The notes under the pieces are model-generated. The model had not been told where the DNA came from and did no database searches. It worked only from the letters and a program-made list of their open reading frames with translations. Made by a program: the position numbers and the translations under genes. 64,000 nt of DNA from Planctomycetota bacterium. GTDB taxonomy: Bacteria > Planctomycetota > SZUA-567 > H5-PLA8. Each line of letters starts with the position of its first letter. Position 1 is the first letter of the stretch. Location: contig DASPJR010000088.1 of the NCBI GenBank assembly GCA_035628505.1, forward strand, positions 30,765 through 94,764, written 5' to 3'. This document shows, one piece after another, positions 5,225 through 59,878 of this stretch.

Positions 5225-6529
5225 TTATTGCAGAGCCGCTGCGACCGCTGCCAGCGAACGTTCAACGTCCTCGTCAGTATGCGCGGCTGACACGAACCAG
5301 GTGCCTTCGGGGATGGTGCGTACACCTCGATTATGCAGAGCCTCCCAGAACCGTTCGTGTGCAGGCACGTCGCGCTTCAAAAAGGAACGGTAGTCGGTCA
5401 CTGCTTCGCATTCACCGAATGAGACGTTGAATGCCGGCGGAACTCCGCGCACAGAAACCGCCCTGCCCGCCTGCTGAGCGAGTTCTTCGATCCCTTTCAT
5501 CAGCGCTCTGCCCTGCTTATTGATATGACGATAAATATGACCCTCGCCGGCCTCGAGCATCTCCAGTGCGGCCTTACAGGCCGCCAGACAGAGCGGGTTG
5601 CTGTTGTAGGTGCCGGCGTGAACGGTTGCCAGCGTGGCGATCTCGTCCATGAGAGCGGCCTTGCCAGCCAGTACGCTCACGCAGAACCCGCCGCCCACGG
5701 CCTTGGCGAAAGTGGCGAGGTCGGGTGTGACACCGAAGTGATTCTGCGCGCCACCGATACCGAGTCTGAACCCGGTGATCACTTCATCAAAGATGAGCAC
5801 GATACCGTGGCGCGAGGTGAGTTTTCGCAGTCCTTCCAGATAACCAGGCTGCGGCAGAATGCCTCCGCTATTGCACATGAAAGGCTCGGTTATGAGCGCG
5901 GCAATATCGGCGCCATGCTCGGCTAGAACGCGTTCAACGGCGGGCAGATCGTTCCATGGGAGGACGATGACGTTGTCGGCGTCGCTCAGCGGGAGACCTT
6001 TGCTGACCGGAACCGGGCGCGGCCTTTCGCGCGGTCCAGCGTCTTCGAGTTTCGGCGCATAACTGAAGAAAACATTATCGAGCCAGCCATGATAATGACC
6101 TTCGAAACGAATGTGTTTGGTGCGACCGGTGCAGGCGCGCGCAAGACGCAGAGCCATATGCACTGCCTCGGAACCGGAGTTCGAAAAACGCACGCGTTCG
6201 GCACACGGAACATGGCGGCAGATCTTCTCAGCAACCTCGATTTCAAGTTCATGCTGGCCGGCATACATCAGCCCGCGCTCGAGCTGCCGCCGCACCGCTT
6301 CCAGAATCGGTTCAGGTGAATGCCCGAACAGCAGTGGCCCGCGCGCGAGGACGTAATCGATGTAGCGGTTGCCATCTACATCAAACAAATGAGCATCTTT
6401 GCCATGTGTATAAAACAGTGGGAACGGCTTCCAGCGTGCACGAATGTTGCTGGAGATCCCGCCTGGGATGACCTTCTTCGCGCGGGCAAGCAGCTGCTGG
6501 GAGCGTTCAAATTTCATGGGGATCCTCAC
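5225..6529 (-). CDS. Class-III pyridoxal-phosphate aminotransferase (glutamate-1-semialdehyde aminomutase-like)
   Basis: Motifs GGISSNIRA...FDEVITGFRLG...ATFAKAVGGG (PLP-lysine context) are typical of class III aminotransferases / HemL-like enzymes. Confidence 0.8.
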   Translation of the reverse strand: MRIPMKFERSQQLLARAKKVIPGGISSNIRARWKPFPLFYTHGKDAHLFDVDGNRYIDYVLARGPLLFGHSPEPILEAVRRQLERGLMYAGQHELEIEVAEKICRHVPCAERVRFSNSGSEAVHMALRLARACTGRTKHIRFEGHYHGWLDNVFFSYAPKLEDAGPRERPRPVPVSKGLPLSDADNVIVLPWNDLPAVERVLAEHGADIAALITEPFMCNSGGILPQPGYLEGLRKLTSRHGIVLIFDEVITGFRLGIGGAQNHFGVTPDLATFAKAVGGGFCVSVLAGKAALMDEIATLATVHAGTYNSNPLCLAACKAALEMLEAGEGHIYRHINKQGRALMKGIEELAQQAGRAVSVRGVPPAFNVSFGECEAVTDYRSFLKRDVPAHERFWEALHNRGVRTIPEGTWFVSAAHTDEDVERSLAAVAAALQ

Positions 6530-8045
6530 TGTGTTGAGAAGGCTTTATTGTTGGCGCCCTGGCCTGCCAGACTACACCGGAATCCAGTGGTGCGACCGGC
6601 CGGCGCACTTGCTTAAACGGCAGTGTTTCCAGGCACGCTGAACAGATTCCCGGTGCATCGACTTCGATAACTTCCCGCGCCATACCTCCGTACGCTGCGC
6701 GCCAGGCAATCGCCGACTTAACGACGATGATGTGGCACGCAAGCGGGTCAATGCCGAGCACGCGCAGTTCTTCGCTGTCGAAGGGCATCACTTTTCGTTC
6801 CCGTATGACGACTGTCACCCCACGTGCCTCGACCACAGCGGCAAGACCGGCATGCACGCGGCGCGAGGTCATGTATGAACCCTGATAGCTGAAGTCGCCC
6901 GAGCAGATGCGTCGCACCGTTCCATTGACCTGGACCGGCGCCCCGTGCAGCGAGTCGCTCGCTCCTCCCACCAGCACCGAAACATTCGCACCGATCCCAG
7001 CCTGCTGAATCGATTCCAGAGCTGCCGGATCGGCGATGGAGATTACCGCGCCGCTGGCGTCCGCATCCAGAAGCGCACGCAGCAGCGTGGTGCCGTCCCC
7101 TGGCGCACCGCCACCAATGTTGTCAGCCGAATCCACCAGCACCACGGGGAATTCGCGTGCCCGCAGAGCTTTTGCGACTGCCTCGAACGGCGGGAGCGCC
7201 TGGCTCACAAATTCGCTGCGCATGTCCCATGCCTGCTGTCCCAGCTCCGCAGCCAGAGCGGCGGCTTGCGGCGCGTTTCCATTCGTGGTGACGATGACAC
7301 TGAGACCTGCCTGCGGCACATCGGCATAAGGAAAGCCCGCCGCAAGGGTGACGTTGAGAACCCCAGGTATGCGCTCCATTGCTGCAGCGCGCCTCACCAG
7401 CTTTAACATCGGCAGACTTTCGGTGAACTGAACTTGAGGTGGAATCATCAAAGGCGGCTGCACGTAAGCTCTCACCGGCCGCATGTTGCCTAACGCGGTC
7501 TGGAATGTAAGCACGGCAACTTCGATGCCTCGGTCGTAATGGTCGGTATGCGGATAGGTCTCGTAGCCAGCGACAATGTCAATGAGATCGACAAATGTCT
7601 GGCTGATGTTGGCGTGGTAGTCGAGCACTGCGCCAATGGGAACGCGTCCGATTCTTCCGCGCAATCTGACAAGAAGATCGGATTCCACATCCAGACAGTT
7701 TTCAACCACCATGGCACCGTGGAGATCGAGCAGAATCAGATCTGGTGATAATCGCTTAATGCTCTGCACCAGCCGCGCGGAGAGTGTTTCGTATGCTTCC
7801 TTGCAAACTGTCGCAGAGGGCGTTGCCGATGCGAAAAATGCCGGAAATAGTTCAACCGAATTGCGGCGGCTCCAGTCGATGAAACCACCGAGGGGCGTGC
7901 GAGTTCCCGTAAATTGCTTCAGGATCTGCTCGCCCTCGAAGCACTCGAAATCCGCAATCGTGGTGCGACCTGCTGCAAACGCGTTCGTTTCGTGCCAGAT
8001 CCCACCAATGGCGACACGAAGAGGCTTGCGTAACGCGCTGTTCAT
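6507..8045 (-). CDS. M81-family metallopeptidase, MlrC-like (DUF1485 + MlrC C-terminal domain)
   Basis: N-terminal RVAIGGIWHETNAF motif is characteristic of MlrC/DUF1485 proteins. Length 512 aa. Overlaps neighbouring genes as in an operon. Confidence 0.7.
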   Translation of the reverse strand: MNSALRKPLRVAIGGIWHETNAFAAGRTTIADFECFEGEQILKQFTGTRTPLGGFIDWSRRNSVELFPAFFASATPSATVCKEAYETLSARLVQSIKRLSPDLILLDLHGAMVVENCLDVESDLLVRLRGRIGRVPIGAVLDYHANISQTFVDLIDIVAGYETYPHTDHYDRGIEVAVLTFQTALGNMRPVRAYVQPPLMIPPQVQFTESLPMLKLVRRAAAMERIPGVLNVTLAAGFPYADVPQAGLSVIVTTNGNAPQAAALAAELGQQAWDMRSEFVSQALPPFEAVAKALRAREFPVVLVDSADNIGGGAPGDGTTLLRALLDADASGAVISIADPAALESIQQAGIGANVSVLVGGASDSLHGAPVQVNGTVRRICSGDFSYQGSYMTSRRVHAGLAAVVEARGVTVVIRERKVMPFDSEELRVLGIDPLACHIIVVKSAIAWRAAYGGMAREVIEVDAPGICSACLETLPFKQVRRPVAPLDSGVVWQARAPTIKPSQHSEDPHEI

Positions 8046-9442
8046 TAGTGTCGCTCCGGCTGCGCTTCGGAATGAAACGTGCGTTCGGGATTAATAAACA
8101 GCCACATGGATGCGGCTAAAAGGAACGCACAGGCATAGACACCGAACATCGCGTTCCAACCGAAGGCATTGAAGATGTACGCCCCGATGATCGGCTGTGC
8201 GAAGCCACCAAGATTGCCAATCATATTGATGAAGCCGGCCGCCAGTCCAGCGTGCCGGCCGCCAATGTCCACGATGCTTGCCCAGTTGGCACTCTGGCCC
8301 ATATCGAACGCACCCGCGGCCAGGCACATCAGAAAAGCGGCCTGATAGGCAGACTCGGCCGAACGGATAAAGAACATTGCACTGCTGGCAACCAGGCAAC
8401 CGATGATGGGAAAGCACGCTCGAACCAGGCGTTTGCGGCCGGTTCGGACGACGAGCAGATCGCAAATGGTTCCGCCAACAATGCAGGCCAGTCCGCCGAC
8501 AAACAGGGGCAACGCAGCCATCCATTCGGAGTTGTGGAACTCGACGTGATGCGTGTCCTTCATGTAGCGCGGTACCCAGCTGACAAAGAAGGACCAGCCG
8601 AAGCCGCCGCAGAAATAATACAGCGCCAGACCCCAGAGACTGCGTGAGCTAAACAGCGCCACCCAGGTGCTTCTTGCAATGGAGTGGGATTCGCGCGTGC
8701 ACTCATCCGGCAGCAGTCGGCGCTCAGCAGCGTTGACTTCCTTTGATTGGGACGGGAGATCGCGGAACCAGGGATAGAAGGCAGCGCACCAGAACACACC
8801 CAGCAGCCCCGCGCCCCAAAAGCCGAAACGCCAGCTGGGCACATCACTGAGCGCGCTGAGCAGAGGCATCGAACGCAGGAACTCGCGAGCGGGTGCTGAG
8901 TCGATGTACGAGAGAACGATGCCAAACAGTATAGGCGAGAACGCTCCGCCCCAGCGTGCACACAGCCACAGCAGACCTCCGAATCGGGCGCGCTGTGCTA
9001 AGGGAACCCAGCGCGCCTGTACCGCCGCCATATTCGGGTACGCGCCGGCTTCTCCGATGCCAAAGCAAAGCCGGCAGATAAAAAGAGTGACAAAGCCGAT
9101 CGCACTGCCTGACAGAGCTGTGAAGAGAGACCAGGCTAACACGATACGCATGAGGCTGCTGCGCGGCCCGAAGCGATCACCCAGCCACCCGCCAGGGATC
9201 TCGAACATGCCATACGCAAACCAGAAAATCCCGAGCACCCAGCCCATCTGTTGATCGGTAATGTTTAAATCACGCTGAATGTCCTGCTGCGCACGGATGA
9301 TGCAGACCCGGTCGAAATACGTCAGAAAGGAGAGCGCGCAAAGAAATGCCATGACGCGGTAGCGGACGCGCGTGGGCGCCTGCATGGCTGAATCGGTAAT
9401 CAGCTCCGCGCCGGATGCATCTTTCAGTGCGCCCTGGTTCAT
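8045..9442 (-). CDS. MFS transporter
   Basis: About 12 predicted hydrophobic segments. MFS signature G-x-L-x-D-R-F-G-(P)-R (GWLGDRFGPRS). Its stop overlaps the MlrC start by 1 nt (TAATG). Confidence 0.8.
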   Translation of the reverse strand: MNQGALKDASGAELITDSAMQAPTRVRYRVMAFLCALSFLTYFDRVCIIRAQQDIQRDLNITDQQMGWVLGIFWFAYGMFEIPGGWLGDRFGPRSSLMRIVLAWSLFTALSGSAIGFVTLFICRLCFGIGEAGAYPNMAAVQARWVPLAQRARFGGLLWLCARWGGAFSPILFGIVLSYIDSAPAREFLRSMPLLSALSDVPSWRFGFWGAGLLGVFWCAAFYPWFRDLPSQSKEVNAAERRLLPDECTRESHSIARSTWVALFSSRSLWGLALYYFCGGFGWSFFVSWVPRYMKDTHHVEFHNSEWMAALPLFVGGLACIVGGTICDLLVVRTGRKRLVRACFPIIGCLVASSAMFFIRSAESAYQAAFLMCLAAGAFDMGQSANWASIVDIGGRHAGLAAGFINMIGNLGGFAQPIIGAYIFNAFGWNAMFGVYACAFLLAASMWLFINPERTFHSEAQPERH

Positions 9443-34052: not shown

Positions 34053-34113
34053 GAGAAAAAAGGCGCAGGCAAACGATGCAGCCAGTCAGTTCCTGGCTCC
34101 ACCATTTGCCTGC
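34053..34113 (-). terminator. Rho-independent terminator downstream of the giant adhesin gene
   Basis: Minus-strand reading GCAGGCAAA-(31-nt loop containing the nested gccag...ctggc pair)-TTTGCCTGC followed by gcCTTTTTTCTCCC. It lies ~20 nt after the stop at 34132. Confidence 0.55.
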
Positions 34114-46742: not shown

Positions 46743-48455
46743 TTAGCGCTTCTCAACCACTTGGAAATTCAGCGTGAACGCCGTTCCAGCCTCACCGGCG
46801 TAGCTCTTTCCCGTATACGGCGTCACACGAATCGAATACTTGCCGGCATTCGGCCGCCAGGCGGTAAAATTACCTTTGAAATCGTCACCGAAAACCGCAT
46901 AGGGCGGCGCATTCTCGGGAGACTTGTTCGGCACGCCATTGATTTCAATTTTCAAGCTGCCAACAACCTCTGGTCGCGTGCGGATGAGAATGTTCAGATT
47001 GCGAGAAGGCAGCGTGCTCAGATTGATGGTCGCGCCTTCGGCGATCGGATCGAAGCCATCGATCACCTTGCCCGTATCAGCGTTCAAAAGCGAGAGACCT
47101 GAAATTGAGAGCTGCGCCGTTCCTGCGGGCGCGAGCGGACCCTTGCGGCCCCGCCAGAGTTTCACTGGATCGAGCGCCGCCGGCGCGTCGGGCGCCTGTC
47201 CTGCCCGGCACGACGAACCCTGGCCGGCCGCCACGCTGCGCGATCCGCGGTCATTGAAGAAATTTACTACGCCCTCCTCCATTTGGACCGACGCCTGGCG
47301 GCCGTCGCTGCGCAGATCAAACTGCGTCCCTGTGACGCCGACGGTCGCCGCGGCGGTGTGGAGCGTCAGCGCGTACTCTTTTTTGTCGGCGGGACTCCGC
47401 GAGGTATCTTTTTCGACGTCTGCATAGAGCAGCCCCTGCTTCAGGCGCAGCACGCGCTCGGAGACGATTTCGATTTCGGTGCCCTCGGCCAGATCAATCG
47501 TCGAGCCGCTGAACAGCGCCAGCGCCGCCTGCGCGACGGGAACAGCGCCCGGCCGAGCGCCGACGCTGATCACGTCGCCCGCCTGCAGCGTTACGCCTGT
47601 CGTAAGCTTTTCACGAACTGCGCCTCGAATGCGTGTGACCGGCGCCGTCTCCGATGCGACGAAGATAATCCGCGCGATCGCCGCATTGGAAGCTGGATCA
47701 GGTCTGATACCCGGCTGAGGCTGAGGCTGAAGCGGGACTGGCGCGATGGCAATTTCTGGCATCTCAGCGGTCTTCCGGTTCTGCACTTCAGCCATTTCGC
47801 GCCGCTCGCGCGCCGCCTGCAGTTCGGCTTCGATTGACTGGCGCTGCTGGTCGAGCGCGGCCAGCGACGCTTCGCGCTGGCGCTGTTCTTCGCTGGTGGG
47901 GCTTGCCAGCGGCTGAGCCTGCAGATTCGCGCGCTGTTTTTCGACTTCGGCAAGTCTCTTCGCTGCTGCTGCGTGCTCAGCCTCGAGCTGTGCCAGGCGC
48001 TGCGCGTGCAGGCGCCGGGCCTCGGCTTCAGCGATGCTGTCAGGCGGCGTCGTCTTTGGCTTTTCCGGATTGGACTGTGCGCGCTCGGTTGGCTTCCCGC
48101 TGAGCAGAAGGATTATTCCAACCAGCACGGCAAGCGCCACTCCCGCGGCGATGCCTGGATGAATCGCCCACGCTTCCTGCGCGCGCCGGCGGACCGACAA
48201 CGACGTGCGCGCCGAGCGGCGCGGTGCGGCCGGCAGACGCGTGCTGACCTTCACGGCCTGGGCCGGCCCTTCGGCCAGGTGTACGGCCTGCAGCATCAGT
48301 TCAGCCATCTCGCGGCGCAGCGCCGCATCGTTGCGCAGGGCCTGCTCGAGCCGTTCGATTTCGAAATCTTTGAGCTCGCCGGCGATATAACGCAGCATCA
48401 GCTCGCGCGGGCTATCCGCGGCATCAGAAGGAGCGGGTGTGCTCGCGGGGCTCAT
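46743..48455 (-). CDS. FecR-family anti-sigma factor / transmembrane sensor
   Basis: N-terminal anti-sigma helix region (LRYIAGELKDFEIERLEQAL). One TM helix. A coiled-coil linker rich in Q/A/E. FecR-like domain (GTEIEIVSERVLRLKQGLLYADV...VGVTGTQFDL). The ATG at 48455 overlaps the sigma stop (ATGA). Confidence 0.75.
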   Translation of the reverse strand: MSPASTPAPSDAADSPRELMLRYIAGELKDFEIERLEQALRNDAALRREMAELMLQAVHLAEGPAQAVKVSTRLPAAPRRSARTSLSVRRRAQEAWAIHPGIAAGVALAVLVGIILLLSGKPTERAQSNPEKPKTTPPDSIAEAEARRLHAQRLAQLEAEHAAAAKRLAEVEKQRANLQAQPLASPTSEEQRQREASLAALDQQRQSIEAELQAARERREMAEVQNRKTAEMPEIAIAPVPLQPQPQPGIRPDPASNAAIARIIFVASETAPVTRIRGAVREKLTTGVTLQAGDVISVGARPGAVPVAQAALALFSGSTIDLAEGTEIEIVSERVLRLKQGLLYADVEKDTSRSPADKKEYALTLHTAAATVGVTGTQFDLRSDGRQASVQMEEGVVNFFNDRGSRSVAAGQGSSCRAGQAPDAPAALDPVKLWRGRKGPLAPAGTAQLSISGLSLLNADTGKVIDGFDPIAEGATINLSTLPSRNLNILIRTRPEVVGSLKIEINGVPNKSPENAPPYAVFGDDFKGNFTAWRPNAGKYSIRVTPYTGKSYAGEAGTAFTLNFQVVEKR

Positions 48456-48982
48456 GACGCGGACATCCCCCGCTGCACGCATTCGGAAAGCGACTGATGA
48501 ATACGGTTGAACGCGACATACAGCGCGTTCGCTTCACGCTTGAGCGCGGCGGCGATTTCGCTATACGAGCGCCCTTCGCGGTAGCGCATGGCGATCAGTT
48601 GCTGGTTGAGCGCTGAGAGCTTGCTGACGCAGTTGTGCAGCACGTGCTTGCGCCGCTCCAGCCACGCTTCGTCGCCAAACTGGTCGATCTCGCTGGCCAC
48701 GGATTCGAGCACTGCCGCATCCATCAGCAGCGTGCGGCCGGAGCGTTTGCGGAGGTTGGCCAACGCCACGCGCCGGGCAATGCCGCGCGCCCAGCTGGTG
48801 AACGGCGCTCGCGTGGGATCGAAGTCCGCCCAGCAGCGGGCCACTTCAACGGCCACGTCGCCCAGCGTGTCTTCGGCCAGCTCGGGGTTGTGAACGATGG
48901 CGAAGATGTAGGCCTTAAGCATCGTGCGATGCGCGAGGAATTCGCGAAAAGCCTGCTCTGTATTGGTCTGATTCCCGTTCAC
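48452..48982 (-). CDS. ECF (sigma-70 family) RNA polymerase sigma factor
   Basis: Region 2 (AEDTLGDVAVEVARCWADFD...FTSWARGIARRVALA) and region 4 (LIAMRYREGRSYSEIAAALKREANALYVAFNRI). GTG start preceded by GGAGAGG. Confidence 0.85.
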   Translation of the reverse strand: MNGNQTNTEQAFREFLAHRTMLKAYIFAIVHNPELAEDTLGDVAVEVARCWADFDPTRAPFTSWARGIARRVALANLRKRSGRTLLMDAAVLESVASEIDQFGDEAWLERRKHVLHNCVSKLSALNQQLIAMRYREGRSYSEIAAALKREANALYVAFNRIHQSLSECVQRGMSAS

Positions 48983-49072
48983 TGGAGCCTCTCCGAGTGA
49001 ACACTATTGTGTCCGCCTGCTCCAGTCTTACGTAAATTCTTAAAAATTAAATCTACACAGGGTGCACCTGTA

Positions 49073-49169
49073 TGAGTCTTGAGTCGGGAGTCTGGGAGTC
49101 GGGAGTCTAGGAGCCTCCAGACTCTAAGACTCACGACTCCAGACTCCAGACTCCAAGACTCACGACTCA
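49073..49169. repeat. Long imperfect inverted repeat built from tandem GAGTC (left arm) and GACTC (right arm) pentamers
   Basis: tgagtcttgagtcgggagtctgggagtcgggagtctaggag / cctcc / agactctaagactcacgactccagactccagactccaagactcacgactca. It abuts the stop codon of the hydrolase gene at 49170 and lies upstream of the ECF sigma gene. Confidence 0.6.
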
Positions 49170-50429
49170 TTACCTCACGTCGCTGCGGATTTCTTTAAAA
49201 AAGCGCGCGCGCATATCTCCGAGCCACGGTTTGATGCAGCGTTCGTTCAGATCGACGGGGAACACTTTGAACGTTCCGGACTCGTTGGTTTCGTGAATGA
49301 CGTTCCCTTTCGGATCGATGACCGCTGTCTTGGCGTCGTAGCCTGCAGAGACCAGATACACGTGATTTTCGTTGGCGCGCGCTTTCATCAGGTCCCAGTC
49401 GCAGCCCCACACCGGGAAGCAGATGATCTCCGCGCCCTTTGCGGCGAGCGCGCGCGCCGGATCGGGGAAGAAGCCGTCGTAGCAGACCATCATGCCGACT
49501 TTGCCGAAATCGGTATTGAACACCGGATACATCGTGCCGGGGGTGACACCGGCTTCGACCTCTTCGCGCGGCAGATAGACCTTGCGGTATTTTCCGGCGA
49601 GCTTGCCGTCACGGCCGATCAGCACCGCCGTGTTGTAAATCGCGTTGCCTTCGCGCTCGATGAGCCCGGCAACGACGTACATCTTGTGCTGCGCAGCCTT
49701 CGCGCCCAGCTTTTCCGTGCTCGGTCCGGGGATCGTTTCAGCGACCTGCTCCATGGTCAGCTGCGTGCCAATCTTGGTGATGCATTCGCCCAGGCAGACG
49801 ATATCGGGTTTGTCGGCAGCGATTTTGTCGAGCGCCTCACAGAAGGCGGCGACGCTCTCGTCGGCCGATTTCGTATTGCGCGGGCGCAGCGCGAGGCTGC
49901 CGATGCGGACGATACGCGGAGCCGGCGGCGTAGCCTCCTTGAAGCTGATATCATCCCACCACACGGCGCCTTGCGGCGCCCAGCCCAGCAGCAGTTCGAG
50001 CTTCGCCGCTGCGGCATTGGGCGGAGCGGGAACGTTCAGCACAATTTTCTTCCAGTCGCCTTCGGTGGCTTCGACTTGAAACACATAGTCCGGCTCGCCG
50101 GCGCGCTTGCCGTCTGCTTTGCGCCAGTCGATCCGCGCGACGACCTGCCGGTTTTCAGACGTCAACCCGTCGCTGCAGTACCAGGCGCTGAACTGGTAAT
50201 TCTTTCCGGGCTGAATGTCTGTGAACTGGCGAATCCACCCGCCGTACTCGGCCGCGTTGCTGTCGCCGCTGATCGCCAGCGAATCCGGCGCGGAGCGGAA
50301 GCGGATCGTGTCGCGGTAACATCGCGGCATGATCTCCTTGCGCGGCGCCCACGTCTCCCACGTTCCTTCCGAGCACAGCGCGCTCAGGCAGAGCATCAGC
50401 GAAAGGGCAAGCAGCAGGGGGCGTTTCAT
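49170..50429 (-). CDS. Secreted carbon-nitrogen hydrolase (nitrilase superfamily) with an N-terminal carbohydrate-binding-like domain
   Basis: Signal peptide. Nitrilase-superfamily E-K-C signature context (YRKVYLPREE ... GMMVCYDGFFPD). Confidence 0.7.
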   Translation of the reverse strand: MKRPLLLALSLMLCLSALCSEGTWETWAPRKEIMPRCYRDTIRFRSAPDSLAISGDSNAAEYGGWIRQFTDIQPGKNYQFSAWYCSDGLTSENRQVVARIDWRKADGKRAGEPDYVFQVEATEGDWKKIVLNVPAPPNAAAAKLELLLGWAPQGAVWWDDISFKEATPPAPRIVRIGSLALRPRNTKSADESVAAFCEALDKIAADKPDIVCLGECITKIGTQLTMEQVAETIPGPSTEKLGAKAAQHKMYVVAGLIEREGNAIYNTAVLIGRDGKLAGKYRKVYLPREEVEAGVTPGTMYPVFNTDFGKVGMMVCYDGFFPDPARALAAKGAEIICFPVWGCDWDLMKARANENHVYLVSAGYDAKTAVIDPKGNVIHETNESGTFKVFPVDLNERCIKPWLGDMRARFFKEIRSDVR

Positions 50430-52507: not shown

Positions 52508-52778
52508 CTCAGCCTTTCTTTTAGAGGCGTCACACGGCACCAGCATTGGAGCGTGCGGAGCATCTTATGCGTTTTCGTTTTAATTTCAGGCGCAAACGAC
52601 CGAGCGCCACGCGGGGAGGGTTTTCGCGTGGGCTTAAATCACGCCCCTGCCGTGATGAGCCGGCAGGGCGGTGATTCCTTTCGAGAATGTCTGGCTGGAG
52701 GCGATCATTATTTACGATCCTGTTTTGAACAAAAACGTTCCCGATAAAGGTAGCGAACAATCCGGCAATTTCAACGGG

Positions 52779-55748
52779 CTATTTCGCTTTAACGCCCTTT
52801 GCTGCAAGCCAGGCCGGATCGGCCTTGAAAACAATCTTCATGCTGCCGATCCAGTAGTTTCCGGTCGAGCCGAAGAACGCCAACTGCGCGCCCACGGCCT
52901 TGGCCGGCAGCGTGACCGGCGCGAGTTCCTCGCCATTGACCGTCCATTTCCAGGCCAGGCCCTTTGCCTCGACGATGAAGGGGACATTCTGCGTCCAGTC
53001 CAGCACCGTATTGCCAAGTGCGTTCGCCGCCAGGCGTCCGCTGCCGGCGCCTTCGAACATTTCCAGGTGAAGCTTGCGGTTATACGGTCGGATGATTGCT
53101 TTCGGGACCAGATCATAATCCGTGCTTCCCGGAGGAACGATGAGGATGCCCATGCGCGGGGTTCGGCCGAGCGTGCGGACGTTCACCTCCAGACGCCGCA
53201 GCTCCGCGATCGGCGCGATGAAACTAACCATCGTGTATTCTTCGCTGTGCTGCGGAACAGCAAAGCCGCCGTCCTGAATTGAGAGCGCGCCGTGTTCGTA
53301 CGTGAACGACTGCAGCTGCTGCTCGCTTGAAAAATCATAGCTCAGCTCGATGAAGCCGTCAGAGAGCATCTTCGCCGACTTCGTGCCAAAAATTTTCGGC
53401 AGCGGGCTGGTGACTTCCTCGGCAAATTCCCGGAACGCGCCGAGCTCGCCGGCTTTTTCCTGCGCAACGATGCTCTCTTTATGCAGCACTTCGAAAACGA
53501 TCAGTTTCTCGATGTATTCCTTCCACTTCTTCGCCTTGATCAGGCCAGTCAGTTCGGTGTACGCCGCGCGTGCTGCCAGCTCTGTGTCGCCGGCTTTGAT
53601 CAGGTTCAGCTTGCGTTCGAAGGCGGTCTTTTCTTTTTCGGGCAGCGTGTCCGCCAGTCTCTGGGCTTCGTCGCGTGCGCCGCGGTGCAGGCAGAGCAGC
53701 GCCGCCGCGTAGCCGCTCTTTGAGCCGGCCGCGTCGAGGATCATCTTGAGAGGCAGCGCCGCGGCAGTCAGCGGCATCTTCGCACCGCCGACGTCCACCA
53801 TCAGGCCGCGCTGCGGGTCGAAGGCTTCAATCTTCGCCTTGTCGCCGAATTTGCGCATCGGCAGATCGTTCGGCAGATCGACGGTCTTCTTGCTTTTGCC
53901 GATGACCGAGAGCGCTTCCTGCTCGAATTTCACGACCTGCGCCAGGTCAGCGAGCTCGGCCGTGAGTTCTTCGCGCGCGGGCTTGAAATCGTCTTTCCCG
54001 CTCAGGTCGCGCGCTTCCTTTTCGACTTTGCTGAAATCCATTTTCGCAGCGCGCTTTGCCACTTCCTGCAGGAACCTGGCGTAGGCGATATCGATCTGCG
54101 GATCCCTGGCGGGCACCGCGGGAGTTGCCGGCGTTGCGGGCTTTGATGCCGTCTCTTGAGGAGCGGCTGCCGGGGCCGGCGCAGACTCCGGCGGTTTGGC
54201 AGCGGCGGGTGCTTCCTCGCCATCTTCCGTGAGCGGCTTGTTTGTCTTTGTCGCCGGCGAAATCAGCGCGAGGATGTTGTCATCCTTGGTCTTCTCCGCC
54301 GCCTTCTCAGCTGTTTTCGGTTCAGCCGTACTTGCAGGCGTGCTTGCGGCCACGGGAGTCGTCGGCTTGGCGGCGACAGTCGCCGGTTTGGCGGCAGGCG
54401 AAGCCGTTCCGGCCGGAGCCGCGGGCTTCGCTGCGGGTTTGGCTGTATCATTGGGCTTGGCCGTGACAGCAGGAGGCTGCGGCTGCGGGGCGGGCTTGCC
54501 TTTTCCGAGCGCCAGCCACGCGACGATACCGAGCACCACAACACCCGCGCCCGCGATGAGCAGATTATTGTTCTTCTTCGGCGTTCCAGTACGCGCGCCG
54601 CGTGTCGTGCGCATCTGCAGCCCGGTGGCGGCGCCTGTGCCACGACGGGTGACGACGGGGTTATCAGAAGATGTACCGGCAAGCTTGAGCAGATCGCGCG
54701 GCGGCAGCGCGCACGAGGACTTCGCGCGGAACTCGGCGGCCACGGGCAGCTTTCCATTCGCTGCAGCATCGAGATCGCGCTGCAGCTGGGCGATATCGCT
54801 GTAGCGGTCGGTCGGCGCCTTGGCCATCATCTTCGAGAGGATCATGGCATATTCGACCGGGATCTCCGGGCACACATCGGTCAACGACGGCGCCGTGTCA
54901 GTCAGATGTTTAACCATCACCGCCGCGGACGTCGGCGCTTCGAACATCGGGCGGCCTGAGAAGATGTGGTAGAACGTCGCGCCCAGGGAGTAGATATCCG
55001 TGCGCGCGTCCAGGTTCTTCTCGCCGCGGGCCTGCTCGGGCGAAATGTAATAAGGAGTGCCCACCGCCTGTCCGGCGAGAGTGATGCTGGCGTCCTCGGT
55101 TTTTTCCATCGAGCGCGCCAGGCCCAGGTCGCAGAGCTTGGCCGTGCCGCTCGGCGCGACCATGATGTTCTCGGGTTTTACGTCGCGGTGGATGAGCTGC
55201 TTCGAGTGCGCATAGGCCAGCGCTTCGGAGATCTGCCGCAGGATGCTGATGGCCTGTTCGAAGGGAATGCGGCCTGATGCTTTTAAAAGCTGCAGCGCCG
55301 TCTGGCCTTCGACAAACTCCATGGCGAAGAACGTGTAGCCGCCCGACTCGCCACACTCGATGCCATTGATCAGATTGACGTGGTTCAGCTTGGCGCTCAC
55401 GCGCGCTTCGCGCAGGAAGCGTTCTTTGCAGGCCGGATCAGCCGCCATCTTCTTGGGCAGAATCTTCAGCGCGACAATGCGGTCCATCGAAATCTGCCGC
55501 GCGCGGAACACCGCGCCCATACCGCCCTGCCCTACTTTGTTCAAGATTTCAAAGCCGGCGATAATCGTTGGATTGGCGCGAATCGTTTCAGGCACGGCCG
55601 AGCCCGAGGTCAGGCTTGTGCCGGGCGCCTGACTTGTGCCGGGCGCCTGACTTGTGCCGGGCGCGTGGCTTGAGCCGGGTGCCTGGCTCGTGCTGGGAGG
55701 CAGTGGCGCGCCTGTCGTGGTTGCGTCGCTGCCGCTCGTCTCGGACAT
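52779..55748 (-). CDS. Ser/Thr protein kinase with a Pro/Ala-rich linker, a TM helix and a large C-terminal extracytoplasmic domain
   Basis: Hanks-type motifs GQGGMGAVFRA, HRDVKPENIMV, DLGLA, GTPYYISPE. TM segment LLIAGAGVVVLGIVAWLAL. Low-complexity PAAKPA stretch. Start is uncertain: ATGs at 55748 and 55754 have G-rich RBS-like upstream sequence, and an ATG at 55793 has none. The ORF track's first start is 55901. Confidence 0.8.
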   Translation of the reverse strand: MSETSGSDATTTGAPLPPSTSQAPGSSHAPGTSQAPGTSQAPGTSLTSGSAVPETIRANPTIIAGFEILNKVGQGGMGAVFRARQISMDRIVALKILPKKMAADPACKERFLREARVSAKLNHVNLINGIECGESGGYTFFAMEFVEGQTALQLLKASGRIPFEQAISILRQISEALAYAHSKQLIHRDVKPENIMVAPSGTAKLCDLGLARSMEKTEDASITLAGQAVGTPYYISPEQARGEKNLDARTDIYSLGATFYHIFSGRPMFEAPTSAAVMVKHLTDTAPSLTDVCPEIPVEYAMILSKMMAKAPTDRYSDIAQLQRDLDAAANGKLPVAAEFRAKSSCALPPRDLLKLAGTSSDNPVVTRRGTGAATGLQMRTTRGARTGTPKKNNNLLIAGAGVVVLGIVAWLALGKGKPAPQPQPPAVTAKPNDTAKPAAKPAAPAGTASPAAKPATVAAKPTTPVAASTPASTAEPKTAEKAAEKTKDDNILALISPATKTNKPLTEDGEEAPAAAKPPESAPAPAAAPQETASKPATPATPAVPARDPQIDIAYARFLQEVAKRAAKMDFSKVEKEARDLSGKDDFKPAREELTAELADLAQVVKFEQEALSVIGKSKKTVDLPNDLPMRKFGDKAKIEAFDPQRGLMVDVGGAKMPLTAAALPLKMILDAAGSKSGYAAALLCLHRGARDEAQRLADTLPEKEKTAFERKLNLIKAGDTELAARAAYTELTGLIKAKKWKEYIEKLIVFEVLHKESIVAQEKAGELGAFREFAEEVTSPLPKIFGTKSAKMLSDGFIELSYDFSSEQQLQSFTYEHGALSIQDGGFAVPQHSEEYTMVSFIAPIAELRRLEVNVRTLGRTPRMGILIVPPGSTDYDLVPKAIIRPYNRKLHLEMFEGAGSGRLAANALGNTVLDWTQNVPFIVEAKGLAWKWTVNGEELAPVTLPAKAVGAQLAFFGSTGNYWIGSMKIVFKADPAWLAAKGVKAK
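55609..55699. repeat. ~5 tandem copies of an 18-bp unit (cctgacttgtgccgggcg) inside the kinase coding sequence
   Basis: Seen directly. Encodes (SQAPGT)n, as in SQAPGSSHAPGTSQAPGTSQAPGTSLTSG, near the kinase N-terminus. In-frame, since the unit is a multiple of 3. Confidence 0.6.
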
Positions 55749-56022
55749 GCCCATCGCCCCCTGCTGCACCGCCTGCACGGTTGAGCCTCTCATTATATAG
55801 GTGAACCGTTTTGGGCGAAAGGGTGAAGAAAAGTTCTCTTTGTGCGTACCTCCATTTGCCAGGTGGCCGTACAGGTCCCCCACCCCCCGGAGAATTGGCA
55901 ATTCTCGTTACGTCAAAAGGGCCGTTGCGCATCGGGTGAAGGTCTCCTATAAACCCTTTAGCAGCCAGATCGATGCGCCCATCTCCTTTCTGGCCGCGTC
56001 GCCTCGCGAAAGGCACCTCGGA

Positions 56023-58443: not shown

Positions 58444-59385
58444 ATGAAGCGCTATGATGCACAGGTTCTCAAGCTTTATGGCCTCACCGAAGAGGACGCC
58501 CGCGACCCCGCGGCCGCGCTGCTCTCGGAAGGCGTCAAAAAGATGTTCAAAGTCGTCCAGTTCATGAAGCTGCCCGTTGACCTCGGTGATGACGGCCTCG
58601 GACAGGCCCGGGTGCTTGCCGAAGAGAAGAACGTTCCGCTCTGGCGGTCCATGACCGGACTCTTCCCGGACAGCGAAGGCAACATGTCGCCTGAAAAGCG
58701 CGAGCAAGCTGTGGAGCAGCTGGTGGGCATCGTCCTGAAGCTGCTGCGCTTTGAGATGAAAGCGGATGCGGAGGCAAAGAACCTCTATCACACTCCGTAC
58801 TGGGATCCGCTGCCGAAGATCTGCGCGCGCCTGGGCATTGCCAACTGCGAGCTCTCGCGCCTCTCCAAGGAAGCCTGCGGCCTGGCCGCGCACGAACTGG
58901 TCGATGTCGTACGCGTCAAAGCGGTCAAGGACCAGATGAAAGAGCACGTTCGCATGTTCATCGCTGCAATTAAAGAGGAGGCCGCTTCATCTCCGCCCGG
59001 CACGGAAGACACCTCCGTTCTCAGCGACCCGCTGGCACTCTTGAAAATCCTGCGCCAGGCGCGCCGCGGACCGCAGTTTCATCGCGGGCAGTGGGCCCTG
59101 ACCCTGGGTTTCCCTACTTACGCCCGCTTCTACCGGGCCAGCCTCGTCTTTTATCAGCTCGCCCCGCAGCAGCTTGAGCTGGTAGCCATCGAAGAAGTCC
59201 TGGCCGAGATCGCTGCCGCGGAGAAGGCCGAACAAGGCAGCGCCGCCGCGACTGTTACTCCCGCAAAGCCAAAGAAGAAGAGCGTCAGCCAACGCCTTGC
59301 CTACGTCGTGTGGGCGCAGCTCAAGCAACGCCACGTGCAATTTTTTGCAGATCTCAAGCAGACGGTGCTGGCCGAAGCCTGCTGA
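58444..59385 (+). CDS. Hypothetical protein
   Basis: Long ORF (track 58276..59385). The ATG at 58444 has AAAGGA 9 nt upstream. No family recognised. Confidence 0.4.
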   Translation: MKRYDAQVLKLYGLTEEDARDPAAALLSEGVKKMFKVVQFMKLPVDLGDDGLGQARVLAEEKNVPLWRSMTGLFPDSEGNMSPEKREQAVEQLVGIVLKLLRFEMKADAEAKNLYHTPYWDPLPKICARLGIANCELSRLSKEACGLAAHELVDVVRVKAVKDQMKEHVRMFIAAIKEEAASSPPGTEDTSVLSDPLALLKILRQARRGPQFHRGQWALTLGFPTYARFYRASLVFYQLAPQQLELVAIEEVLAEIAAAEKAEQGSAAATVTPAKPKKKSVSQRLAYVVWAQLKQRHVQFFADLKQTVLAEAC

Positions 59386-59419: not shown

Positions 59420-59600
59420 GCTTCCGAGTGGCCCAGCCCAACGGGCTGGGTGCCGAAGGCACAAGAAGCCACGGAACAAGCGCTGTCCCGGTTTGCGTGT
59501 GCACTTCTGTGGGACAGCGTCCGTCCTGCGGCTTCTTGTCGCTAACGCGACACGGCCCGTCGGGCCGTGCCACCCTGCGGGGTCACGTGTTCGTAAAGGA
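59420..59600. repeat. Cluster of GC-rich stem-loops (REP-like) downstream of the hypothetical gene
   Basis: cccagccc-aac-gggctggg, gctgtccc-(22 nt)-gggacagc, and cacggccc-gtc-gggccgtg. Each has an 8-bp perfect stem. Coordinates are approximate. Confidence 0.45.
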
Positions 59601-59878
59601 GCAGCGCGTCAGCACTGCCCATGGATGCGCATGCCTTGCATGGTCAGTGCTGCATAGCTGAAGGTCTGGACTGCCAACGATGAAGGTGCAAGCGATGCTG
59701 TCCTACGTCTGCGTTGCCCATGCCACACAGCGATGGCCACACGAGCTGCCCGTGTCACACGCGCAGCCCGTGCACACACTGCACCAGTGCGCGCGTTGCA
59801 ATCTTTGTATCTGATTGTAATGGCCTGAGGCTCGTTGACTGCGGTACGGTGAAGGCAGAGTTACGGGACGGCTTTACT

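Follow-up and report, generated by a model that had tools for sequence, protein, structure and literature searches.

A length-variable inverted pair of GAGTC heptamer arrays following the stop codon of a planctomycete hydrolase gene

Described heptamer repeats and hairpins

Heptamer repeats have been known in cyanobacteria since 1990, and their over-representation in bacterial genomes was reported in 2007; we know of no agreed function for them. Here we describe a heptamer repeat pair in a 64,000-nt stretch of DNA from a Planctomycetota bacterium (assembly GCA_035628505.1, contig DASPJR010000088.1, positions 30,765 to 94,764), hereafter called the window. Between a carbon-nitrogen hydrolase gene and a gene for an extracytoplasmic function (ECF) sigma factor, two facing arrays of a 7–8-base repeat with the core GAGTC form a hairpin, and one of its arms differs in unit number between near-identical strains. 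The element belongs to a known, widespread and poorly understood class of bacterial heptamer repeats. We propose that it may act as a slippage-variable intercistronic RNA stem-loop, limiting read-through and protecting or processing the hydrolase message, a reading to which we assign a probability of about 0.45.

The closest known relatives of the element are the convergent (GGGANTN)n pairs of Xanthomonas. Approximately 185 (GGGAATC)n or (GGGANTN)n loci are present per Xanthomonas genome, of which 89–93% are intergenic, lying on average 28 nt from the 5’ neighbouring open reading frame (ORF) and 160 nt from the next, with the stop codon often overlapped (Rehm et al. 2015, PMC4692102). Convergent inverted pairs number 70–75, and their length differs between species (PMC4692102). 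Transcript starts and stops at the repeats that form G-quadruplexes exceed those at control repeats, although a regulatory role could not be demonstrated by Rehm et al., and a slippage-prone polymerase footprint was proposed for the heptamers (PMC4692102). The present element shares with these repeats the 7-nt tandem units (GGGAGTC matches GGGANTN), the intergenic location at or overlapping the stop codon of the 5’ ORF, the pairing of convergent arrays able to form a stem-loop, and variation in length among close relatives. One Xanthomonas campestris genome contains (GGGAGTC)4 flanked by GGGGATT and GGGATT units. The differences lie in the host phylum, here Planctomycetota, in the transcribed 5’ arm, which here consists of TGGAGTC or GTGAGTC without G3 tracts, and in number, with one locus in the 64 kb seen as compared with ~185 per Xanthomonas genome.

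Cyanobacterial STRR heptamers, the GGGGA(C/T)T repeats of Nostoc and the TAACTGA repeats of Beggiatoaceae are likewise dispersed intergenic tandem heptamers, with no assigned function (PMC4692102, PMC4679880). Many cyanobacterial genomes among the matches listed in our own search contain (AGGAGTC)n or (GGGAGTC)n arrays. The STRR and Nostoc arrays are mostly single, with few inverted pairs in Nostoc according to Rehm et al. (PMC4692102), whereas the element described here is an inverted pair; the Beggiatoaceae repeats are placed just upstream of start codons (PMC4679880), whereas this element lies at a stop codon.

The one heptamer hairpin to have been tested mechanistically is that of Haemophilus influenzae hmw1A, in which (ATCTTTC)n forms one arm of a long hairpin of RNA within the 5’ untranslated region (UTR) that is cleaved by RNase III; expression of the adhesin depends on repeat number, which varies in populations (PMC12721329). 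Both loci combine a heptameric repeat within a long imperfect hairpin with a nearby gene for a very large protein. In hmw1A, the 5’ UTR is mapped, repeats make up a single arm and the pyrimidine-rich arm leads. In the present element, whose RNA hairpin is predicted from sequence, repeats make up both arms, the G-rich arm leads and the stem abuts the upstream stop codon.

In terms of function, the closest analogy would be with the REP, BIME and REPIN elements, which are also intergenic hairpins just past stop codons, often between co-directional genes and often arranged as inverted doublets. REP elements can shield the mRNA upstream of them from 3’ exonucleases, attenuate read-through, and stall ribosomes if no more than 15 nt separate the hairpin and the stop codon. 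The REP unit is a conserved imperfect palindrome of ~35 nt mobilised by the RAYT transposase, whereas the units here are 7-nt direct repeats, contain no conserved unique sequence and change by unit slippage. Assignment to REP/REPIN was rejected on the basis of the 7-nt direct-repeat unit, the absence of a second copy in the window, and the absence of an exact match to the 22-nt centre in JGI metagenomes.

Anatomy, setting and strain variation of the hairpin

The element was placed at 49072–49170, and consists of two facing heptanucleotide simple-sequence-repeat (SSR) arrays in inverted orientation, with the unit NN(N)GAGTC. An earlier note on this DNA had described a hairpin of facing GAGTC and GACTC arrays at 49073–49169; the hairpin was borne out, and the counts of about 7 and 9 units given there were corrected to 5, with one additional degenerate unit, and 7.

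49120–49170, − strand: 5’ arm of the hydrolase-sense transcript, seven GAGTC units, the first base overlapping the stop codon
Unit order of the 5’ arm: ATGAGTC GTGAGTC TTGGAGTC TGGAGTC TGGAGTC GTGAGTC TTAGAGTC
49116–49119, − strand: apical loop of the minimum-energy fold, 4 nt
49072–49115, − strand: 3’ arm of the transcript, five GACTC units and a degenerate inner unit, GGCTCC

On the + strand, exact GAGTC occurs five times (49074, 49081, 49088, 49096 and 49103), together with one degenerate GAGCC, and exact GACTC occurs seven times (49120, 49128, 49135, 49142, 49149, 49157 and 49164), with a spacing of 7 or 8 nt in both arms. Analysis with Tandem Repeats Finder gave a period of 7 in each arm, and higher-order periods of 15 and 22. 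The cores are intact in 12 of the 13 units, while nearly all of the spacers differ. Viewed on the + strand, the 3’ arm is a G-rich GAGTC arm with GGGAGTC-type units, those matching GGGANTN being GGGAGTC (twice) and TGGGAGTC (once; 8 nt, containing GGGAGTC), and the rest T/A-TGAGTC; the other arm, on the − strand, is made up of TGGAGTC or GTGAGTC and deviates from GGGANTN at positions 1–2. One strand has three GGG runs and the other has none, ruling out a canonical G-quadruplex. This is the sole cluster of GAGTC/GACTC pentamers within the window, where the 67 occurrences outside the element, both strands summed, correspond to ~0.1 expected per 96 bp as compared with 12 observed.

RNA folding of a 126-nt segment gave −67.5 kcal/mol for the − strand (z = −5.6) and −64.4 kcal/mol for the + strand (z = −5.5), with 0 of 200 dinucleotide shuffles equally stable, and folding of the DNA gave −36.5 kcal/mol (z = −6.5). 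The minimum-energy stem contains 39 pairs, joining 49120–49163 with 49072–49115 across the 4-nt loop, consistent with the long imperfect stem described previously. A scan of 110-nt segments over the whole window (mean −34.7, sd 7.3) placed the hairpin at rank 7 of 8520 segments, as the third-best region. Searches against Rfam 15 at the gathering threshold returned zero matches in the whole window, and at E values up to 10 the 400-nt region around the hairpin returned chance matches to microRNA precursors alone, with 18–23 bits against thresholds of 70–100.

To compare strains, the locus was identified in three further assemblies. ENA ERZ27257319 is identical to the window sequence over the 1,049 nt covered, and Logan SRR7003765 differs from it by two synonymous single-nucleotide polymorphisms (SNPs); both have 7+5 units. 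In ENA ERZ27257313, four SNPs were counted over 7.2 kb, along with 29 extra bases that add four units (TGGAGTC GTGAGTC TTGGAGTC TGGAGTC) to the hydrolase-proximal arm and give 11+5 units.

49133–49135 (approximate), − strand: site of the 29-nt insertion in ENA ERZ27257313 k141_2925267, the exact position being ambiguous within the repeat

The additional four units are thus present in one of three haplotypes, and in a single arm only. The occurrence of 7 and 11 units in near-identical strains demonstrates that the repeat copy number varies, and since the arrays are shorter than the largest k-mer of the assembler (141), each allele is probably supported by reads. One arm gains or loses blocks of units, matching replication slippage, and the slipped-strand variable element suggested in the earlier note was supported in this respect. 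Look-ups via the sigma factor, FecR, LeuA and two proteins at the window edges yielded four assemblies of the locus in all, and nothing past the window. Two independent assemblies, Logan SRR7003765_3755 and ENA ERZ27257319 k141_139026, share the same endpoint at ~49489–49491 inside the hydrolase gene, ~320 nt upstream of the hairpin and near the haplotype-distinguishing SNPs at 49623 and 49647.

The neighbouring genes are all on the − strand, in the order LeuA-like synthase, carbon-nitrogen hydrolase, hairpin, ECF sigma factor, FecR-type anti-sigma factor and a 4115-aa protein. A scan covering six flanking proteins detected PKD, He_PIG and DUF5650 domains in the 4115-aa protein, and the NCBI name of the hydrolase protein assigns its source to a Planctomycetota metagenome-assembled genome (MAG). 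The gap of 190 nt between the hydrolase gene and the ECF sigma cluster contains the element and the following features.

49170–50429, − strand: carbon-nitrogen hydrolase gene
49170–49172, − strand: hydrolase stop codon, TAA
49055–49073, − strand: short second hairpin ATACAGGTGCACCCTGTGT, 7 pairs and 5-nt loop, immediately after the long stem
49042–49051, − strand: U-rich tract UUUAAUUUUU, 3 nt past the short hairpin
48980–48982, − strand: most likely start codon of the ECF sigma factor, GTG, with GGAGAGG 5 nt upstream
48979–49170, − strand: 63-codon open frame, from TAATG (overlapping the hydrolase stop) through the hairpin to GTGA (overlapping the sigma start)

On the transcribed strand, the long stem sets in 1 nt past the hydrolase stop, and the first unit, ATGAGTC, begins at 49170 and shares one base with the TAA, as the earlier note had stated for the start of the stem. 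The same note had called the element promoter-proximal to the sigma gene. That description is loose: the stem lies 90 nt from the likely sigma start codon, and a scan of 48300–49700 for the sigma-70 consensus found zero promoters on either side of the hairpin. The gene caller placed the sigma start at ATG 48922 (156 aa), which would cut into region 2 of the protein; the region-2.1-like EQAFREFL upstream of this ATG, and the GGAGAGG preceding GTG 48982, make a 176-aa sigma factor more likely.

The long stem resembles an intrinsic terminator in being a G+C-rich hairpin at a gene end with a U-rich tract nearby, and the short hairpin with its U-rich tract is the sole terminator-like site in the scan of 48300–49700. 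However, its 39 bp compare with ~5–14 bp for terminator stems, and it is followed directly by AUACAGG, whereas an intrinsic terminator needs a U-tract within 0–2 nt. The long stem was therefore rejected as an intrinsic terminator, the U-rich tail belonging to the separate 7-bp hairpin. The terminator or insulator proposed in the earlier note is plausible only in a modified form, in which the long stem-loop is combined with a separate small terminator and the two could act jointly as RNA.

The strain variation and the gene order bear on a possible contingency switch of the downstream operon, similar to hmw1A, in which hairpin and operon would share a leader and the number of units would set RNase III processing or toggle the 63-codon frame, a possible coupling frame between hydrolase stop and sigma start. 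SSR length polymorphism, as is characteristic of phase-variable contingency loci, is present (7 versus 11 units), and units of 7–8 nt shift the reading: the frame starting at the ATG stays open from stop to start in the allele of the window, and the allele with the extra 29 nt closes it after 22 codons. The downstream cluster ends in the 4115-aa PKD/He_PIG protein, a type of surface gene that contingency loci control, the lack of a sigma-70-type promoter between hairpin and sigma gene leaves room for co-transcription, and hmw1A provides a precedent for the combination of heptameric repeat, long RNA hairpin, RNase III and large adhesin (PMC12721329). On the other hand, two allele lengths only were seen, the terminator-like hairpin and U-tract stand between the stem and the sigma gene, and the latter has its own Shine-Dalgarno-like GGAGAGG. 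A 63-codon open frame has by our estimate a ~10% likelihood of arising by chance, the repeat alters no identifiable promoter spacing, and the arm polarity of the hmw hairpin is opposite. We consider such a switch distinctly unlikely.

The hydrolase C-terminus (...FFKEIRSDVR, window 49173–49200) is 1–9 residues shorter than those of all 24 closest homologues, which typically end in ...WDVPVxGLVK, and the final few codons of the hydrolase may have given way to the repeat array. A ZnuABC transporter and a GH9 gene flank the gene of the closest homologue (78% identity), where the gap is 23 nt and contains no hairpin, and the gene of a second homologue (74%) lies in yet another gene context. With synteny lost at the closest homologues, no empty and filled sites can be compared.

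A shortened protein might also result from insertion of a mobile element at the gene end, that is, a MITE (miniature inverted-repeat transposable element) or REPIN-like hairpin behind the hydrolase gene. An intergenic hairpin of ~100 nt with inverted arms directly past a stop codon would fit this origin, and REPINs are likewise intergenic hairpins directly after stop codons. However, the element is flanked by GGTA and ACAG without a target-site duplication, its arms are tandem 7-mers in place of a unique terminal inverted repeat, no second copy is present in 64 kb, and the copy-number change involves whole units, as in slippage. Searches of the JGI metagenome collection, in which the organism is absent, gave no exact match to the 22-nt centre or the 23-nt junction. 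A MITE was rejected on the undupli­cated flanks and the lack of another copy in the window, and the mobile origin, which has little support, appears highly improbable.

Heptad arrays in other genomes and viruses

To determine how widespread such arrays are, sequence collections were searched for a pattern of four GAGTC at heptad spacing, for which we estimate ~5 chance matches in 596 Gb. At least 120 loci matched in the collection of species-representative genomes, the groups among the matches listed including Cyanobacteria, Planctomycetota, Acidobacteriota, Gemmatimonadota, Chloroflexota, Bacteroidota, Xanthomonadales, Verrucomicrobiota, Actinomycetota and others, and at least 120 viral contigs matched in IMG/VR. 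The earlier note had named, as refuting its reading, a unique occurrence to which no transcript 3’ ends map; the element is unique within the window only, and its kind is common elsewhere. Permuted-core controls in the viral collection gave 62 matches for TGGCA, 65 for GATGC and at least 120 for GCAGT, as compared with at least 120 for GAGTC, which supports a preference for GAGTC of twofold at most. Period 7 was by far the commonest tandem-repeat period in the fetched loci, accounting for 377 of 985 arrays, with many different units. Tandem GAGTC heptamers in bacteria were not found in the literature searched.

Two observations concern the extent of the repeat family. In the viral loci of the GCAGT control (L249–L368), (GGCAGTN)n arrays gave GCAGT-then-ACTGC pairs in 27 of 120 loci, with 37 pairs in this order and 1 reversed; as GGCAGTN and GGGAGTC units share GGNAGT, the GCAGT control may belong to the same broad family. 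The Actinomycetota MAG EBPR_ori4bin.3 (L025, L075 and L076) contains, on three contigs, at least six arrays of GAGTCTG, GAGTCGA and GAGTCAA units with similar leading flanks (AAAGTC...), indicating that a single genome can carry a dispersed GAGTC heptad family.

Type IIS and nicking enzymes are known to recognise GAGTC, and HinfI and CcrM have GANTC as their site. Outside the element, the 67 occurrences of GAGTC in the window compare with 74.6 expected under a maximal-order Markov model (ratio 0.90, rank 101 of 512 pentamers). Since GAGTC is undepleted and arrays with control cores are common, its identity as a restriction or nicking site is most likely incidental. The connection to a restriction target made in the earlier note was not upheld, and a cluster of restriction or modification targets was rejected, unrelated cores being about as common in heptad arrays.

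The same counts bear on a function at the level of DNA, in which the heptads would bind a small protein, a GAGTC/GANTC methyltransferase or a restriction enzyme, or the array or its cruciform would form a nucleoid or topological element. Retention of the GAGTC cores while the spacers vary, and the stability of the DNA hairpin, are consistent with such a function, and the heptad operators of the omega repressor (plasmid pSM19035) favour direct and converging over diverging orientations. Against this, GAGTC is not depleted outside the element, the same architecture occurs in arrays with other cores, a phasing of 7 bp turns consecutive sites toward different sides of the helix, no candidate for the binding protein was identified, and paired arrays elsewhere are up to 250 nt apart. 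A DNA-level role has little support, and we regard it as very unlikely.

To examine the architecture of the class, statistics were compiled from ~4 Mb of fetched loci (L002–L489, from genomes and IMG/VR contigs), in which some viral contigs are mutually related, with genes called by a crude ORF picker. A GAGTC array followed by a GACTC array within 250 nt was found in 15 pairs from genomes and 9 from viruses, with 2 in the reverse order (24/26), and these pairs all fold to long hairpins. Among inverted period-7 pairs of any unit, the 5’ arm has more G than C in 170 of 190, and the C-rich arm is 5’ in 16; the 5’ arm is also G-rich in 72 of 86 pairs whose units were not used as search triggers. 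In contrast, the ordinary perfect hairpins of this DNA show the opposite tendency, with 78 G-rich and 109 C-rich 5’ arms.

The heptad pairs are intergenic in 158 of 181 cases, mostly between co-directional genes. Their hairpin edge lies at a median of 4 nt from the adjacent stop codon (within 25 nt in 106 of 137) and 24 nt from the adjacent start codon, as compared with 96 nt and 162 nt for ordinary hairpins. The orientation of single arrays relative to genes is confounded by stop codons within the units, and was used only where it agreed with the published Xanthomonas data. The window element obeys both the polarity rule and the stop-codon rule, and is unusual solely in the 90 nt to the next start.

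Six heptad hairpins with related units (GAGTC and GAGAGTT types) are present on one viral contig, L184 (IMGVR_UViG_3300035688_000092, GC 0.64).

402–510, 850–926, 5566–5645, 6732–6820, 8881–8963 and 9652–9747 of L184: heptad hairpins

A check by hand found that five of the six begin 8–22 nt past the stop codon of a co-directional ORF on the + strand, and that one ends 8 nt short of the next ATG.

These statistics bear on the main rival of the stem-loop reading, a neutral slippage product. Slippage, favouring 7-nt units, together with fold-back or template switching would have made facing arrays in dispensable DNA, deletion bias would then have trimmed the unique spacer, and the hairpin would be tolerated without having a function. 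The dominance of heptamers, with many different units, among the tandem repeats of array-bearing loci (377/985), the abundance of control cores, the inequality of the arms in units and spacers with tolerance of a one-sided 29-nt insertion, and the lack of conservation at the nearest homologue all agree with a neutral origin, as do the failure to find a function in Xanthomonas and the slippage-prone polymerase footprint proposed there (PMC4692102). However, it predicts neither the polarity (170/190 G-rich first, opposite to ordinary hairpins) nor the close apposition to stop codons (median distance of 4 nt, as compared with 96 nt), and the 12 intact cores among 13 with variable spacers point to constraint or homogenisation of the paired core. 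We judge a neutral origin to be unlikely. Ideas for the cause of the G-rich-first polarity include avoidance of Rho, fold-back synthesis of a G-rich nascent strand, and reiterative 3’-end addition followed by joining.

A possible intercistronic role, and other structures in the window

In the proposed role as an intercistronic RNA stem-loop, transcription from the hydrolase side would produce a duplex of ~39 bp filling the start of the untranslated gap, which would act in the manner of REP/BIME and other long 3’ or leader hairpins. The stem-loop would set the 3’ end of the hydrolase mRNA and protect it by blocking 3’ exonucleases, while the duplex would shield the C-rich arm from single-strand-dependent factors and present a long double-stranded target for RNase III-type processing. 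Together with the short hairpin and the U-tract, the long stem would restrict read-through into the sigma operon. The footprint of a ribosome positioned on the stop codon takes in the base of the stem, which may thereby influence how hydrolase translation terminates as well, and since unit slippage alters the length and register of the stem, it could tune all of these effects. This role is suggested by the anatomy and stability of the hairpin, its position 1 nt past the stop, the terminator-like site, the polymorphism, the widespread occurrence of the kind, the common architecture, and the published findings on the Xanthomonas repeats (PMC4692102) and the H. influenzae hairpin (PMC12721329).

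Several findings weigh against the stem-loop reading. The long stem lacks its own U-tract, and among 14 such hairpins it is sometimes the sense and sometimes the antisense strand that folds more stably, so that with no consistent bias nothing indicates selection on one RNA strand. The arms differ in spacers and unit number and a one-sided insertion of 29 nt is tolerated, so that any selection for a perfect stem can at best be weak. No hairpin is present in the 23-nt gap at the closest hydrolase homologue (78% identity), which lies in another context, a single such element is present in 64 kb, and Rehm et al. were unable to demonstrate that the Xanthomonas repeats have a regulatory role (PMC4692102). 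As for the class statistics, the gene calls came from the crude ORF picker, and because purine-rich units contain stop codons, ORF ends can be pulled toward the arrays.

Taken alone, the locus represents one more heptamer repeat pair, now in a Planctomycetota MAG and with direct evidence of strain variation. The polarity and stop-codon rules of the class outweigh the locus in importance and are worth following, a strong G-rich-first and stop-abutting rule being a signature either of the origin of the arrays or of a role at cistron boundaries. If unit number tunes expression, such arrays would constitute a common and overlooked form of heritable expression variation outside pathogens. A switch, if real, would represent SSR phase variation acting via an alternative sigma factor in an environmental planctomycete. 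The boldest proposal, in which the hairpin is a slippage switch for the ECF sigma/anti-sigma/4115-aa operon, through stem length or register and the 63-codon frame, and the class as a whole comprises cross-phylum intercistronic control elements with a mutational dial, is a long shot, slightly more doubtful than the switch at this locus.

In local fold stability, the top three regions of the window include, besides the hairpin, an 18-nt tandem repeat at 55.6 kb, which gives the most stable 110-nt fold (−67.5 kcal/mol, + strand), and an inverted repeat at 59.46 kb, which occupies the gap between an ORF ending at 59385 and an ORF starting at 59714 and is followed by another 18-nt tandem repeat.

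55615–55697: 18-nt tandem repeat CTTGTGCCGGGCGCCTGA, 4.6 copies, 87% matches, in the N-terminal part of a Ser/Thr kinase ORF (52779–55901, − strand)
59461–59539: inverted repeat, 29-nt arms, 79% complementary, 21-nt spacer, fold of about −67 kcal/mol
59738–59777: second 18-nt tandem repeat

Other gene ends in the window bear ordinary non-repetitive hairpins, for example at 34065–34113 and 52637–52676.

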